Shown here: positions 6,040 through 19,749 of the stretch, piece after piece
How the letters are laid out: the number at the start of each line of letters is the position of its first letter
Numbering within the stretch: the first letter of the stretch is position 1
The notes under the pieces: generated by a model
What the model saw: only the letters and a program-made list of their open reading frames with translations
What the model was told of the DNA's origin: nothing
Database searches by the model: none
Made by a program: the position numbers and the translations under genes
UHGV virus genome: UHGV-0346409
Strand: one strand, 5' to 3'
Length of the DNA: 44,226 bases
Origin: a virus

Positions 6040-6453
6040 CTATTTTGTCTGGTTTTTGGCTTCAAGTAGTTCTTTTAGCAGTAGATCGAAGTGCTCTCTT
6101 TTTTCTTTTAGCTCATTGATTAATTTATTTTTTTCGCTCTCAGGCAGTCCTCTGAATAGTTGCAGTAGAGCCTGTTCTTGCGGGGTTAGTTCTTGATTGT
6201 AATTACCCGGGTGTAGCGTGGATTCATCCAAATATTCCCCTTCATTCATGAAGAAAAAATGAACAGGGTATCCGGTCACTTTTGCTAGCTTGTCTAATTT
6301 ATCTTTTCTTGGAGTTACCCCATTACACCATGCCTGAACTGATTGAGCCGTAACCCCAATATGGCGAGCTAACTCAGATTGAGACCAGCCTAAGTCTTTT
6401 AGAATCCGTTGTAGTCGGCTAGCAAAAGCCATGTTTTTCGTTTTTGTGTTCAT
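6040..6453 (-). CDS. Phage repressor, XRE-family HTH, no S24 peptidase domain (CI-like position)
   Basis: N-terminal HTH (LGWSQSELARHIGVTAQSVQAWCNG); helical C-terminus; divergent from cro-like gene. Start ambiguous (ATG 6453 or 6432; ORF-track TTG 6468). Confidence 0.7.
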   Translation of the reverse strand: MNTKTKNMAFASRLQRILKDLGWSQSELARHIGVTAQSVQAWCNGVTPRKDKLDKLAKVTGYPVHFFFMNEGEYLDESTLHPGNYNQELTPQEQALLQLFRGLPESEKNKLINELKEKREHFDLLLKELLEAKNQTK

Positions 6454-6551: not shown

Positions 6552-6782
6552 ATGGATAAACAACTGCAAGACAAAATTCTTTCCGTAATGAGTCAATCCG
6601 AGTTAGGGCGGCGATTAGGGAAAAAACCACAAACGGTAAGCCTCTGGTTCAAAGGAAGGGTTCCCGGTGAAGAGGTTTTGCGCACATCTGAAGCTCTTGA
6701 ATGGCGCGTGACCCCCCATGATCTTAGACCGGATCTTTACCCAAACCCAGATGACAGCTTGCCTAAAACGAAAGCAGCTTAA
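6552..6782 (+). CDS. Cro-like HTH regulator (Cro/YdaS-type)
   Basis: 76-aa ORF with AAGGAG RBS, HTH-like segment (SQSELGRRLGKKPQTVSLWFKG), divergent from repressor. Confidence 0.65.
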   Translation: MDKQLQDKILSVMSQSELGRRLGKKPQTVSLWFKGRVPGEEVLRTSEALEWRVTPHDLRPDLYPNPDDSLPKTKAA

Positions 6783-7583: not shown

Positions 7584-8648
7584 ATGAGTCGTTTGCTGAT
7601 TAACGAAAACCCCCTTCAGGTCCTGCCCACGTTGGCATGCACTATAGGGTTGAATGAAGCCATCGTTCTACAGCAAATCCACTACTGGCTGAATTCATCT
7701 CAAAATTTCTTCGAAAATCGCCACTGGGTGTACAACAGTGTGACCGATTGGCAAGAACAATTCCCGTTCTGGAGCGAGTCGACAATAAAACGCGTGCTGG
7801 CCAATCTGGAAAAATTGAATGTGGTATTTACTGGGAACTTTAACAGTGATGCCTGGGATAAAACCAAGTGGTATTCAATCAATTATGCCCAGTTATGTAA
7901 GATTGAAGAGACAACATTCCCTGTGGCCAATCGATTAGGTCAAGTTGACCCAATCGAAGAGGTCAATGTGACCCAAGCATCAGGTCAAGTTGACCCATGC
8001 GCTAAGGTCAAAATGACCCAATCTCTTACAGAGAATACAACAGAGAGTACTACAGAGATAAAAGATCCCCCTTACCCCCAAAAGGGGGAGGGCGAGGAAA
8101 TCATTCTCGCTGACGCTCAAAAAGCTCTGAACTACTACAACGAGAAAGTCGGTACACGCTGCCGCGATGTTAAACCGTTTGTCATGCTGCTGACTGCCAC
8201 CACCACCCGCGCTGGTTACAGCGTGGCTGAGATTCAGTTAGTAATTCGTTGGGTTATTGCGACATGGCGCCGTCGTAGCGGAAGCGTGCCGAAACCTGCG
8301 AACATTTGCCGCGTAAACCGGTTTGACGGATATCTGGCTGACGCTGAGGCGTGGGCCACTGCTGAGGCTGCCGTTGACCCTGCTGAAGTTGTGAAGAGCT
8401 ACAACGAGATTCTGGGCGACCTGCTACCTATAGCTGAAATTGATACTGACCGCCGTCGGGCAATCCTGCGCCTGCTGGCACATATGCGCACGCAAACTCT
8501 TGGCGCATTTATCGGCTACTTCGAAAAATTCCGCGATAACGCCCCAGACTTCTATTTCGGCGGCGAATATCGCACCGGCTGGCGGGCAGGGTTTGATTAC
8601 CTGATGAAGCCAGAAACACTGCGTAAAACCAGGGAAGGGGCATTATGA
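7584..8648 (+). CDS. Replication initiator (lambda O-like) containing the origin iterons
   Basis: 354-aa ORF from ATG 7584 (GGAG upstream); four iterons inside the coding sequence as in lambda O/ori; coupled (ATGA) to the helicase gene. Confidence 0.65.
   Translation: MSRLLINENPLQVLPTLACTIGLNEAIVLQQIHYWLNSSQNFFENRHWVYNSVTDWQEQFPFWSESTIKRVLANLEKLNVVFTGNFNSDAWDKTKWYSINYAQLCKIEETTFPVANRLGQVDPIEEVNVTQASGQVDPCAKVKMTQSLTENTTESTTEIKDPPYPQKGEGEEIILADAQKALNYYNEKVGTRCRDVKPFVMLLTATTTRAGYSVAEIQLVIRWVIATWRRRSGSVPKPANICRVNRFDGYLADAEAWATAEAAVDPAEVVKSYNEILGDLLPIAEIDTDRRRAILRLLAHMRTQTLGAFIGYFEKFRDNAPDFYFGGEYRTGWRAGFDYLMKPETLRKTREGAL
7938..8020 (+). repeat. Origin iterons: four copies of GGTCAA-NN-TGACCCA at 7938, 7961, 7983, 8006, followed by an AT-rich stretch
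   Basis: Read directly; 22-23 bp spacing (about two helical turns). Confidence 0.75.
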
Positions 8649-11043: not shown

Positions 11044-11117
11044 TTGCGAAGTGACGTAAAACAAATCGTTGTGGGTGTAATATCGTCAATATCATTGGTT
11101 TCCTGGAGGGAAAGGAT

Positions 11118-11339
11118 ATGTTTGGCGATAACCTGGAGTTACCACGGAACGGGCGGATAGTGCTCTATATTTCAGATTACAAAGTAACCCGGGCTGAGGT
11201 GTTGGAACCGGAAAAACATTTGGTCACGTTACCGGACATTATTGAGTTGTATAAGCGGGTCGGATATGTGGACTTGCATCGCGATGATGTTCCCGTTGAG
11301 TGTATGGAATGTGAACACCGGAGGTTTGAAGTTGATTGA
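11118..11339 (+). CDS. Hypothetical protein (73 aa)
   Basis: GGAGGG RBS upstream of ATG. Confidence 0.45.
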   Translation: MFGDNLELPRNGRIVLYISDYKVTRAEVLEPEKHLVTLPDIIELYKRVGYVDLHRDDVPVECMECEHRRFEVD

Positions 11340-11431
11340 ATTGACTTAGAAAAAGCCCGGGGCTATAGTTTCCGCGCAGCCGCAAAATCGGTTGCCGGGA
11401 TTTGCACCCCGGATATCTAAAAGGCGACAAC

Positions 11432-11451
11432 GACGCGCCAGCGTCTTTTTT
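11432..11451 (+). terminator. Rho-independent terminator candidate
   Basis: GACGC-GCCA-GCGTC hairpin followed by TTTTTT. Confidence 0.5.
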
Positions 11452-11611
11452 ATTGTCGTGCGCACAGCCACATCCGCGATTTATGGTGGGGCGTGTAGGG
11501 GAGTCGAAAGGCTCGCCGGGTCCTTTTAGCCGGTAGTGCAAACCCTGCATGTCTCACCACCCAAAGATTTGCACCTGAGGGGGGTGATTATCCGACTAAA
11601 AGGAAATCGCT

Positions 11612-12406
11612 ATGACAACTCAAGTATCCGCAGCAGCCATCTCCCCGATTATCCACAACCAACTTCCCGTCCTCACCACCGAATTACTCGCGAATCTCTA
11701 TGGCACAGAGCCGGATTACATTCGTAAAAACCATAACCGGAACTCAGAGCGATTCGTGGTCGGGAAGCATTACTTTTTGCTCGAAGGTGAGGAGTTGCGC
11801 GAATTTAAGCACAGCATGTCTTTAAGACCTCCTGTGAAAATCGCCAGAAATGTCCGCTCTCTCATCCTCTGGACAGAACGCGGCGCAGCTCGCCATGCCA
11901 AAATGCTGGAAACAGAACAGGCCTGGGAAGTTTTCGAAAAGCTGGAAGATTGTTATTTTAGCCAGCGTCCAGAGAGGCGGAGTACAACCACCGATGACCG
12001 CACTCCCTTACGTGATGCCGTTAATATGCTGGTCGGTAAGAAAGGCATGATGTATCCCGATGCCTACACCATGATTCACCAACGTTTCGCCGTCTCTCAC
12101 ATAGAACAACTGTCACAGACGCAAATGTTAGAGGCGATTGAATACATCCACTGCCTGCTACTCGATGAAAATCAGCCAACCATTCCAGATTTTTCTTTTA
12201 TCACCACTATCAAAAATGGAAAAGTGACCAGGATGCGCCATGTTGCCAAAGGCGAACATCTGATGACGTTTGACGCTTTCAAAGAGATCGCTGAGCGGGC
12301 AGGGTATCTGGTGATCCACAGCGACAACCTGCGAAGTATGACGCTGGATAAATTGATGGTAATGGGGAAAAAGTCGGTTGTATCCGTTGCTGATTCAGCA
12401 TTTTGA
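11612..12406 (+). CDS. Antirepressor-like protein with ORF6N/Bro-N-type N-terminal domain
   Basis: N-terminal segment (LPVLTTELLANLYGTEPDYIRKNHNRNSERFVVGKHYFLLEGEELREFK) matches the ORF6N-type antirepressor N-domain by recall; own transcription unit after a terminator. Confidence 0.5.
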   Translation: MTTQVSAAAISPIIHNQLPVLTTELLANLYGTEPDYIRKNHNRNSERFVVGKHYFLLEGEELREFKHSMSLRPPVKIARNVRSLILWTERGAARHAKMLETEQAWEVFEKLEDCYFSQRPERRSTTTDDRTPLRDAVNMLVGKKGMMYPDAYTMIHQRFAVSHIEQLSQTQMLEAIEYIHCLLLDENQPTIPDFSFITTIKNGKVTRMRHVAKGEHLMTFDAFKEIAERAGYLVIHSDNLRSMTLDKLMVMGKKSVVSVADSAF

Positions 12407-16035: not shown

Positions 16036-16641
16036 TTACTTGCGTTTAAAAAGGTATTTTGTCACGACCAGCACGAGGCCGAATACCTCTGTCAAAGTAC
16101 CGCCCATGTACAACTGTAGTGTTAAATCCTCAAATTCCAGCTTACCTGCGCCGTCGGCAATAAATACACCATTCATTATCAGAAGTTGGCAAGCAAGGAT
16201 AATCAGGAACCATTTCCCGTATCGTTTTTTTAGAGCGATTTCTGCTTCAAAATCTTTGTTGTTGAGTTGTTTGCGCTCATGCTCGGTATCAAGTGAATTC
16301 ACCTGTTTCACAGATGTGAACTCGGTCAAGATTTTACTCTCAGTACGGGTGACTTGTTGAGAGGGTGTAACAGTTGGAATTCTTTTGCTAGACGCAGCTA
16401 CAGCCATTTTGCGAGCTTCGGCAGCTCTTTTTCTGGCTATTCCGCGAATACGGACAGCCGTTTTTTTGGGGGCGTGCGAAACCTTTGGCTGAGGTGAAGT
16501 TTCGTCAGGAGACTGAACCGGGGTTTCATCGTCCCCCGGCTCAACCTCTTCTGCTAACTGACGGTGTAGGTTGAGGGAATCCTTCAGTCGGCGTGCAACT
16601 TCCTGTTTGAAACGGCTGTTAAAATCGTCATCCGATGGCAT
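16036..16641 (-). CDS. Membrane protein: charged, low-complexity N-terminal region and two C-terminal transmembrane helices
   Basis: Hydrophobic segments WFLIILACQLLIMNGVFI and LTEVFGLVLVV near the C-terminus; start 9 nt after the ImmA-like stop (operon). Confidence 0.6.
   Translation of the reverse strand: MPSDDDFNSRFKQEVARRLKDSLNLHRQLAEEVEPGDDETPVQSPDETSPQPKVSHAPKKTAVRIRGIARKRAAEARKMAVAASSKRIPTVTPSQQVTRTESKILTEFTSVKQVNSLDTEHERKQLNNKDFEAEIALKKRYGKWFLIILACQLLIMNGVFIADGAGKLEFEDLTLQLYMGGTLTEVFGLVLVVTKYLFKRK
16042..16117. repeat. Right copy of ~75-bp imperfect direct repeat, lying within the 3' end of the membrane-protein gene
   Basis: Aligns with 12441-12515 (about 93% identity). Confidence 0.7.
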
Positions 16642-16650
16642 TCTAAAGCG

Positions 16651-17139
16651 TTACCCCAACCTCAAGTTCTTTAAACGATAAGTCATCGCATCGTCAGATA
16701 CGCCAAAATAATGCGCCATTATATAACTTGGTTGGCCGTCAGCGTGCAGTTTTCTGACCTCATCAACCGGCATCAGAAGTTCTGCTGCGAACTTGTTCGC
16801 AAAAATTTCATCAGGATGCGTTCCGGCGCTTGCGGTTTCGCCACGTAAATCAACGTACTCATATTCATCACTATGCGATGCTTGCCGGGCGATGTAATGC
16901 CCCAACTCATGCCCACATGAAAAACGTTGACGAACTTTGTTGTCATCACTGTTTAGAAAGATCGCTGGATCTTGATCTTTTTGTTTAATCAGTGCGCCAG
17001 AAACTTTCCCAGGAAGATCGGTAATAAAAACATCTAATCCCATGTCGTGAGCAATTTTCGCTGGATCAACAGGGAAACCACGCCCGCACCAGAACGTGTC
17101 CAGCACTCGCCGGGCGTGCTCTCTTGGGTTGGTAGCCAT
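16651..17139 (-). CDS. ImmA/IrrE-family zinc metallopeptidase (COG2856/DUF955-like)
   Basis: HExxH motif (CGHELGHY) and downstream E..ANKFAAELLMP segment typical of ImmA/IrrE peptidases (recall); GGAGG RBS. Confidence 0.75.
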   Translation of the reverse strand: MATNPREHARRVLDTFWCGRGFPVDPAKIAHDMGLDVFITDLPGKVSGALIKQKDQDPAIFLNSDDNKVRQRFSCGHELGHYIARQASHSDEYEYVDLRGETASAGTHPDEIFANKFAAELLMPVDEVRKLHADGQPSYIMAHYFGVSDDAMTYRLKNLRLG

Positions 17140-17466: not shown

Positions 17467-17486
17467 ATCTGTAAAAAAATACAGAT
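17467..17486. promoter_or_regulatory. LexA (SOS) box candidate: ATCTGT-AAAAAAAT-ACAGAT
   Basis: Exact CTGT-N8-ACAG with AT-rich spacer, in the intergenic region between the ImmA-like gene and a plus-strand small ORF. Confidence 0.5.
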
Positions 17487-17706
17487 CTAACTTGATCTTT
17501 TCATTGAAGTTTTTCTTGGTCCTGGATAGGATCTGGAGGTTGCGAAGTTTTTAGAGTCGCATCAAAGGGAAAGCCCTGACAGCGCCAACTGTCAGGGCCA
17601 TACAAAAACATCGGTTAATGCTTTCGTTGAGATCTCGGTTTGGGAGATTACCTCAACCGGGATCCCGTGTAAAGCATTCATTACCGAAAATGATATAGGT
17701 CAATGA

Positions 17707-18745: not shown

Positions 18746-18838
18746 TGACCATAAACGGTTTAATCCCCTATAAAACCGTTTAATAAAATTCACGACGTGA
18801 ATATAATTGTTCATTATTCCCTCATTGTATTTGGCGTT

Positions 18839-18876
18839 ATGACAAATGCCATAAAATACTGTATAAATGTACAGGT
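18839..18876 (+). promoter_or_regulatory. SOS-type promoter: -35 ATGACA, 17-nt spacer, -10 TATAAA, overlapped by LexA box TACTGT-ATAAATGT-ACAGGT (18857-18876)
   Basis: Read directly; box is close to the TACTGTATATATATACAGTA consensus and overlaps the -10; 21 nt upstream of an ATG with GGGGGAAG RBS. Confidence 0.6.
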
Positions 18877-18896
18877 AATGGCGTTAGGGGGAAGAC

Positions 18897-19076
18897 ATGA
18901 ATATTCAAGAATCTATAGGCGAACTACCGGAAACATGCCGGGCTGTTATCAAGCGTAAGGACGGACACATCGTTGGTGTGCGTGTTCTGACCGATGATGA
19001 ACGGATTGCCAGCCTGATGGCGTTTCTCGAGTTGGCAGAAATAGCTGGATATACTATTACACCCCCTGATGCGTAA
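18897..19076 (+). CDS. Small SOS-regulated protein (59 aa), candidate antirepressor; below the ORF-track length cutoff
   Basis: ATG with strong RBS immediately downstream of the LexA-overlapped promoter. Confidence 0.5.
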   Translation: MNIQESIGELPETCRAVIKRKDGHIVGVRVLTDDERIASLMAFLELAEIAGYTITPPDA

Positions 19077-19152
19077 AACACGGTATAATGTCGGTGCTGG
19101 ATTGAACACCCAGCACCACTTCTGAACACTGCCGCGCCACCTGGAGTTAACC

Positions 19153-19749
19153 ATGGCGCAGCATTCATTTATCAGGGTATCCGGCGGTTCGCTAATACCC
19201 GCGACACCAGACACGCAACGCTGGTTGACTGAACGAGTCAAACCAGGTGCTGTTGTGTATGCAGATTTCAAACAGGCGCGTAATCCCGCGTTTCATCGTA
19301 AATTTTTCTCACTTCTCAACCTGGGCTTTGATTACTGGCATCCCTCCGGAGGGGCTATTTCTCCTGCGGAGCGCGAACTGGTTCACGGATACGTTAAGTT
19401 ACTGGCGTATTACGGTGGGCATGGTGATGTCATGGCTGAGCTGGCTGATCAGTATCTTCTCGATGAGTCGGAAAAGCGCGCGGGGAATATCAGTGCGGTG
19501 AAGTCGTTCGAGGCGTTTCGCGCCTGGGCGACTATGGAATCTGGATTTTATGACGTTCATCAGATGCCAGATGGTAGTTTGATGCGTGTACCTCGTTCAA
19601 TCTCGTTTGCTGCGATGGACGATCTTGAGTTCGGTCAACTGTATTCAGCCGTTTTAGATGTGCTGTGGAATTATATTTTGTTCCGCACGTTTGCCTCTCA
19701 GGAGGCCGCTGAAAATGCTGCCGCGCAGCTGTTGGATTACACATCATGA
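19153..19749 (+). CDS. Hypothetical Nin-region protein (198 aa)
   Basis: ORF with GGAG RBS, upstream of the Q-like gene. Confidence 0.5.
   Translation: MAQHSFIRVSGGSLIPATPDTQRWLTERVKPGAVVYADFKQARNPAFHRKFFSLLNLGFDYWHPSGGAISPAERELVHGYVKLLAYYGGHGDVMAELADQYLLDESEKRAGNISAVKSFEAFRAWATMESGFYDVHQMPDGSLMRVPRSISFAAMDDLEFGQLYSAVLDVLWNYILFRTFASQEAAENAAAQLLDYTS

Follow-up and report, generated by a model that had tools for sequence, protein, structure and literature searches.

ORF59, a predicted LexA-repressed antirepressor of the Rem/GfoA/FsoA family in an Escherichia coli prophage

Described antirepressors and the prophage that carries ORF59

The small Salmonella prophage proteins GfoA, GfhA and FsoA bind and inactivate uncleavable phage repressors, and the Gifsy genes are under the control of LexA (PMC3121763). 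GftA, GfoA and GfhA are each encoded in a LexA-controlled dinI-antirepressor-irsA operon, and the FsoA gene is found in the left operon of Fels-1 (Lemire et al. 2011, PMC3121763). Deletion of irsA and dinI has no effect on Gifsy induction, for which the small gene is sufficient; FsoA has no role in the induction of Fels-1, and the specificity of these antirepressors is promiscuous or non-cognate (PMC3121763). PSI-BLAST searches that started from GfoA and FsoA led to a further member, Rem, which relieves repression by DicA 165-fold and whose inducing signal is reported as unknown (Ragunathan et al. 2023, PMC10448788). By their descriptions, Tum of coliphage 186 and AntC of N15 are also LexA-controlled and bind non-cleavable repressors, which makes them analogues of the 59-aa protein considered here (ORF59). 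Both are larger than ORF59 and unrelated to it according to the literature; Tum has 146 aa and a DinI-like half.

ORF59 is encoded at 18897-19076 (+ strand; stop codon 19074-19076) of the window, that is, the whole stretch of 44,226 nucleotides of virus genome UHGV-0346409 that was analysed. A prophage of E. coli O43 str. RM10042 is 100% identical to the window and is integrated beside a tRNA-Ser gene, between mtfA and the remaining chromosome. The gene set comprises an integrase, a replicative helicase, a cargo region, DUF1367-YbcO-Q and lysis genes, and YdaT accompanies a divergent repressor/Cro-like pair. The head genes are lambda-like, and those of the contractile tail are P2-like. A 501-bp segment around the LexA box and ORF59 was found in 445 of 5426 complete E. 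coli genomes at 95-99% identity, and many of these 445 genomes belong to ST131 strains. A literature search on the nearly identical phage vB_EcoM-705R4 returned nothing on the induction of that phage. E. coli strain 48 (deer faeces, NZ_CP166879; locus L022, 404-435) carries a type I-E CRISPR spacer that exactly matches prophage positions 19120-19151, and its PAM, ATG (the reverse complement of 19152-19154), overlaps the start codon of the DUF1367 gene.

The LexA box and the proposed promoter of ORF59

LexA boxes were scored by the Berg-von Hippel heterology index (HI), which was derived from a set of 31 E. coli LexA boxes and not from the published Lewis matrix; the absolute values are approximate. 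The LexA (SOS) box TACTGTATAAATGTACAGGT at 18857-18876 covers the -10 element and the likely transcription start. It is a CTGT-N8-ACAG palindrome of the E. coli type with an HI of 4.9, which on this approximate scale falls within the range of proven operators (dinI 4.5, recA 5.1). The second-best LexA-like site of the 44-kb window, at 7829, has an HI of 10.3, and a value of 4.9 was matched in only one of 300 Markov-randomised windows. The sequence-only reading had claimed a near-consensus SOS box at this position and proposed that it be scored with a LexA matrix; the box is present, it is by far the top LexA site of the window, and by its approximate HI it reaches the level of the recA operator. 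LexA control of ORF59 is very likely.

The motif CTGT-N8-ACAG was counted twice in the window, against 0.41 expected. The other occurrence, CTGTAAAAAAATACAG at 17469-17484, was considered as a second SOS box and rejected because its HI of 11.5 is at chance level, being reached by half of the random windows. This motif lies within a 570-bp non-coding stretch, and a strong palindrome, GCCCTGACAG-N6-CTGTCAGGGC, is located about 90 nt downstream of it, at approximately 17573-17598.

The promoter ATGACA-17-TATAAA, which had been proposed to drive ORF59 with its -10 overlapped by the box, was found as described. The -35 element ATGACA (18839-18844, +) matches TTGACA at 5/6 positions and is kept, by alignment, in both other E. 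coli variants of the locus. The -10 element TATAAA (18862-18867, +), placed 17 nt after the -35 and within the LexA box, is without the conserved final T. The promoter scan of the window did not list this promoter, because the scan demands a T at position 6 of the -10. The ribosome binding site and start codon that had been read after the box were likewise recovered: the RBS GGGGGAAG (18887-18894, +), of which AGGGGGAA is conserved among the E. coli variants, is followed by the start codon ATG at 18897, and the frame of 59 aa ends at 19076.

A promoter-like site that the scan did list, TTAATA-16-TATAAT (18780-18807, +; 10/12 matches), is found 50 nt 5' of the LexA box and comes closer to consensus than ATGACA-17-TATAAA. 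If this promoter is active, LexA would act as a roadblock only. The site is conserved in close E. coli variants only, and it overlaps the right arm of an A/T-rich palindrome, AAACGGTTT-N11-AAACCGTTT (18753-18781, +), just upstream of the SOS promoter. Terminator-like palindromes also precede the Gifsy LexA boxes (Lemire et al., PMC3121763), and the palindrome of the window may be a weak terminator that shields the promoter against transcription coming from further 5'. It was not listed by the terminator scan, which detected no strong terminator.

Family, neighbourhood and recurrence of the LexA box

The RefSeq record of ORF59, WP_001025459.1, is named 'hypothetical protein', and the gene is called in more than 1000 contigs. 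The open reading frame had been described as easy to miss, a remark that does not hold, since it is annotated. In the PHROGs collection ORF59 falls into phrog_340 (E 1.6e-20), which carries the label 'unknown function' and also takes FsoA (1.1e-26) and GfoA-like proteins (7.6e-21). A profile built from ORF59 relatives matches FsoA (2e-19), GfoA-like proteins (5e-11) and Qin Rem (5e-10). By BLASTP, ORF59 aligns with FsoA (41% over 39 aa) and with the GfoA-type proteins of SEN34 and mEp237 (33% over 51 aa). Precomputed Pfam hits for ORF59 family members name PF27490 'Rem'; a Pfam search with a release that lacks PF27490 gave no match for ORF59, FsoA, GfoA or GftA. With ORF59 as query, a word-indexed search returned close E. 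coli relatives only, and an exhaustive profile search returned 38 representatives, proteins of about 60 aa, with the family consensus LPxxGRVVxxxxNGxxxSxRxLxxDEHIAxLxxFxELAxxAGYTIxPP.

The sequences of FsoA and GfoA used in these comparisons were identified by mapping the primers of Table S1 in PMC3121763. Primers le154 and le162 encode MNSQQMM... and ...EAGIRFEEISNVG, the two ends of Fels-1 STM0898.2n (FsoA), and primers le117 and le163 encode MSNSALQK... and ...RRLGYRVTPPSDI, which match SEN34 gp55 and mEp237 gp049 (GfoA-type). The AlphaFold model of ORF59 has a pLDDT of 89 and consists of a short helix, a beta-hairpin and a helix. A PDB sequence search with ORF59 found nothing, and Foldseek with the confident model gave no match below E = 1. 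ORF59 agrees with the description of a small stand-alone temperate-phage protein (about 60-85 aa), and its membership in the Rem/GfoA/FsoA family is, by sequence comparison, near certain. ORF59 thereby extends a class already described and does not stand for a new mechanism.

GftA was also considered as a sequence relative of ORF59 and was rejected: BLASTP gave no alignment, the profile E-values were 0.006-0.017, and GftA belongs to phrog_4847. The Gifsy-2 protein shares with ORF59 the slot between the LexA promoter and irsA and also the function, which for ORF59 is predicted, but there is no detectable sequence similarity between the two; what they have in common is the slot and not the family.

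The next gene of the probable SOS operon (19153-19749, +; Pfam DUF1367, E 1e-78) is a homologue of irsA. Its product shares 56% identity with that of Gifsy-2 STM1020, which lies between gftA and NinG and is named irsA by the Lemire primers. The PHROGs label of the 19153-19749 gene is 'NinB/Orf homologous recombination mediator' (phrog_319, E 2.5e-68), and Pfam gives DUF1367 only. The order in Gifsy-2 is LexA box (11080-11099), dinI, gftA and STM1020. Since ORF59 lies directly upstream of the irsA/DUF1367 homologue, it occupies the gftA/gfoA slot. As in a Gifsy-type operon, the putative antirepressor gene follows the replication genes and stands immediately 5' of irsA (DUF1367), and the LexA box overlaps the operon promoter; the Gifsy-2 box scores an HI of 2.5 on the same scale. 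A dinI gene at the head of the operon was not found: 20 nt separate the box from the start of ORF59, with no DinI-like ORF, and the box thus directly precedes the antirepressor gene.

Compared with the described systems, ORF59 resembles GfoA and GfhA (Gifsy-1 and Gifsy-3) in its phrog_340 assignment, its LexA box, the slot before irsA/DUF1367 in the pre-Q region, and a short repressor without an S24 domain. In the Gifsy phages, however, dinI intervenes and the box lies about 365 nt before the start codon of the antirepressor gene, against 20 nt and no dinI for ORF59. GfoA has about 80 aa and a UUG start, whereas ORF59 has 59 aa and an ATG start, and the ORF59 phage differs from Gifsy in its E. 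coli host, its lambda-like head genes and its P2-like contractile tail. FsoA (Fels-1, STM0898.2n) belongs to the same family, and its target GtgR, which is inactivated by GftA and FsoA, is the characterised repressor closest to that of the window; FsoA has 78 aa, however, and its gene belongs to a left operon governed by an S24-type CI repressor and is without a LexA box. Fels-1 induction does not depend on FsoA. Rem (E. coli K-12 Qin cryptic prophage; PF27490) is also of the same family and upstream of Q-region genes, and DicA is related to the window repressor, but Rem has 83 aa with an extra N-terminal half and no LexA box upstream (best HI 18). The sequence-only reading had compared the locus with Gifsy-type and 186-type phages; the Gifsy comparison stands for family, slot, box and repressor type, and the comparison with 186 stands as an analogy only.

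ORF59 is followed, on its own strand and at short intervals, by the genes for DUF1367, YbcO and Q, and no T-rich terminator was seen after it. This arrangement, together with the location of irsA within the Gifsy LexA operon (PMC3121763), would suit a promoter that serves mainly to express DUF1367-YbcO-Q (recombination/nuclease functions and the late antiterminator) in the SOS response, with ORF59 as a minor passenger. We regard this as very improbable, given that ORF59 is clearly in the antirepressor family, that the small gene was sufficient in Gifsy and the irsA/dinI deletions had no effect (PMC3121763), and that a conserved element before DUF1367 suggests independent control of the genes behind it. 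Such a role of the promoter is in any case compatible with, and not exclusive of, the antirepressor function proposed for ORF59.

The element in question (19084-19117, +) lies between ORF59 and the DUF1367 gene and consists of a TATAAT (19084-19089) and then a hairpin, GGTGCTGG-ATTGAACAC-CCAGCACC (19093-19117). The same element was found in L003, L005, L007, L008, L011, L013, L014, L016 and L017, in all of which it sits between the antirepressor gene and the next gene, with a spacing of 3-8 nt between TATAAT and hairpin. Across the 10 loci, 4/5 pairs of the 5-bp core stem covary, and the 9-nt loop YYTGAACAM is nearly invariant. Rfam gave no match at the ORF59 locus, including this hairpin. It may represent a promoter followed by a leader hairpin, or an RNA site to which a protein binds.

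Loci of diverse ORF59-family members were collected, and the 600 nt upstream of each gene were scanned for LexA boxes. Strong boxes (HI 1.1-4.9) were present in 8/10 distinct loci in which the gene precedes DUF1367 or Q. Besides that of the window, they include the boxes of the E. coli variants, TGCTGTATAAATACACAGGA (HI 4.4) and TACTGTATATATATACAGTG (HI 1.1), those of Raoultella (3.3), BUCT708 (2.4) and Edaphovirga (1.9), and those of SEN34 (2.6) and mEp237 (2.3), both of which stand before dinI. In a Stenotrophomonas-labelled phage, the homologue of ORF59 likewise precedes DUF1367. In Yersinia L014 and Erwiniaceae L017, which have the gene in the same position, no LexA box was found within 600 nt upstream, indicating that LexA control is not universal in the family. 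Of the eight loci with another context (six left-operon loci, Fels-1 fsoA and Qin rem), none had a strong box, the best site having an HI of 14.7 or worse. The boxes vary in sequence and keep CTGT/ACAG, and in the E. coli variants, Raoultella and BUCT708 they are located 17-23 nt before the start codon. Such a pattern is to be expected under selection on LexA binding.

The same comparison bears on whether the box of the window is a non-functional coincidence, with ORF59 expressed by read-through from the early right operon. The promoter-like site upstream of the box and the failure to detect a strong terminator speak for such read-through, but an equally good site arises in only 1/300 random windows, and differing boxes recur at 17-23 nt from the start codon in the E. 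coli variants, Raoultella and BUCT708. We consider a coincidence extremely improbable and retain LexA control as the preferred reading.

The type of repressor was found to go with the box. All box-bearing phages with a readable immunity region (n=5: the window, Gifsy-2, SEN34, mEp237 and BUCT708) have DicA/GtgR-like repressors of 126-155 aa without S24, and an S24 CI repressor was found in every left-operon host. In Stx phages, the homologue follows an S24-type CI repressor in the left operon. The two placements of the homologues, before DUF1367 and in the left operon, are the very ones that were described for the small antirepressors of Salmonella prophages (Lemire et al. 2011, PMC3121763).

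Two of the loci call for separate mention. BUCT708 (vB_SmeS_BUCT708; L003, L026) is deposited as a Stenotrophomonas phage and has a genome layout like that of the window; its repressor shares 62% identity with DicA of E. coli, and its box is of the E. coli type CTGT-N8-ACAG. LexA boxes of Xanthomonadales differ from this type, and the host assignment of BUCT708 therefore looks doubtful. In one E. coli genome (L012, 2465-2484), the box has a 2-bp deletion in the TA repeat, which yields TACTGTATATATACAGGG (CTGT-N6-ACAG, HI 9.6). This deletion should weaken LexA binding, and the antirepressor might be leaky in that lysogen.

The repressor, other Rem-like modules and prophage induction

The prophage repressor (6040-6432, - strand) has 130 aa and belongs to the DicA/GtgR family, and a Cro-like (YdaS-type) regulator encoded divergently from it (6552-6782, +) marks the immunity region. 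It had been claimed that this repressor has no autocleavage domain. The domain search bears this out: HTH_3 was the only domain detected and Peptidase_S24, on which self-cleavage of the lambda type relies, was not found in the protein. The repressor aligns end to end with GtgR (33% identity over 129 aa, E 1e-22) and with DicA (31%), and a C-terminal LLxLFxxLPExE motif is common to the three proteins. On the Gifsy precedent, ORF59 would target the 130-aa repressor and would be the necessary trigger of induction.

The earlier suggestion of a LexA-controlled small antirepressor thus gains support, as a predicted function, from four independent lines, namely homology, synteny, the repressor partner and the comparative footprint. 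We consider it likely, from these sequence comparisons, that ORF59 acts as a Rem/GfoA/FsoA-type antirepressor under LexA repression and induces the prophage by way of the 130-aa repressor. In the lysogen, host LexA bound at 18857-18876 would block the ATGACA-17-TATAAA promoter by occluding the -10 element and the start site. Upon DNA damage, activated RecA would lead to self-cleavage of LexA, and the promoter would fire. ORF59 would then be made, probably along with the downstream DUF1367-YbcO-Q, and would bind the non-self-cleaving DicA/GtgR-type repressor and remove it from its operators. The early operons would be turned on and the prophage induced. In this scheme we infer LexA binding in vivo, the 130-aa repressor as the target, and the extent of the transcript.

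A six-frame profile scan of the window revealed two Rem-like modules besides ORF59. One is a 73-aa ORF (11118-11339, +; phrog_340, E 3.6e-21), a second stand-alone protein of the Rem/GfoA/FsoA family. It has a strong RBS, GGAGG, is unannotated in RefSeq NZ_CP028122 and is called 'hypothetical' in other assemblies; it closes the early right operon and immediately precedes isrK, with no LexA box nearby. The other is part of a 264-aa ORF6N/Ant-type antirepressor (phrog_4792; 11612-12406, +), of which residues 197-238 form a Rem-like module (profile E 8e-15; phrog_340, 3e-12). No record of the phage collection covers at least 80% of this 264-aa protein. The window is not the only case of paralogous copies in a single phage, since Salmonella/Citrobacter left operons (L020 and L021, 2275-2713) contain two tandem Rem-like genes (E 3e-14 and 2e-22).

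Between the 73-aa ORF and the Ant-type gene, Rfam matches were found for isrK (11376-11451, +) and for the C4 antisense RNA (11479-11564, +). This arrangement of isrK, C4 and an Ant-type gene resembles the c4-ant region of P1. It resembles the IsrK-AnrP module of Gifsy-1 as well (PMC4825925). The C-terminus of Gifsy-1 AnrP gave a weak profile match (E 0.011) and no phrog_340 match, and for this reason the domain link to AnrP is suggestive only. A tentative idea, about which we are rather doubtful, is that one repressor-binding module is used three times under different controls (LexA-gated in ORF59, in the early right operon as ORF73, and as a fusion in the Ant-type protein), so that induction integrates SOS and an RNA switch and is locked by positive feedback. 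If this were true, the GfoA and IsrK-AnrP pathways of Gifsy would be linked via one common domain.

The presence of two other Rem-like modules in the window would be in keeping with a different role of ORF59, namely that of a Rem-family antirepressor which is not the trigger of its own prophage and, in the manner of FsoA, acts in trans on other prophages or reinforces induction. We think this unlikely. FsoA-type genes lie in repressor-controlled left operons beside S24 CI repressors, whereas ORF59 has a LexA box, a Gifsy-type position and a non-cleavable repressor partner, and the role of own trigger remains the one we favour.

The prophage also encodes an ImmA/IrrE protein (Peptidase_M78; 16651-17139, -). 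The gene that follows encodes a protein of 201 aa with a membrane segment at its C-terminus (phrog_5346, unknown function), and the two genes occupy 16036-17139 on the - strand. Some relatives of the prophage carry this pair and others have different genes in its place; the pair looks like variable cargo and is perhaps a defence module. ImmA/IrrE was considered as the inducer and judged unlikely because its gene is variable cargo.

More broadly, induction might proceed mainly via another module, either the ORF6N/Ant-like antirepressor with its preceding isrK and C4-like RNAs (together 11376-12406) or repressor cleavage by ImmA/IrrE, with ORF59 as an accessory. The isrK and C4 matches, the 'anti-repressor' label of phrog_4792, the Peptidase_M78 match and the activation of antQ by the Gifsy-1 IsrK-AnrP pathway (PMC4825925) point in this direction. 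Neither module, however, has a LexA box, the best other site of the window being the one at 7829. The ImmA gene, moreover, lies at a distance of 10 kb from the repressor gene and forms a pair with that of a membrane protein, and relatives that retain box-ORF59-DUF1367 lack it. Hence, we find it distinctly unlikely that ORF59 is accessory to these modules, although the two further Rem-like modules and the ImmA/IrrE protease could share or replace the trigger role.

The preferred reading, with ORF59 as the LexA-controlled trigger, offers a specific and testable function for a gene called 'hypothetical' in hundreds of E. coli genomes, and for phrog_340. It also offers an annotation heuristic, in which a LexA box goes with a position before DUF1367/Q and a short DicA/GtgR-type repressor, and the lack of a box goes with a left operon and an S24 CI repressor. 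With ORF59, the Rem family would have an E. coli representative wired to LexA; for the founder of the family, Rem, no inducing signal is known. The prediction is that SOS-inducing antibiotics would induce this common prophage via an antirepressor and not via repressor cleavage.
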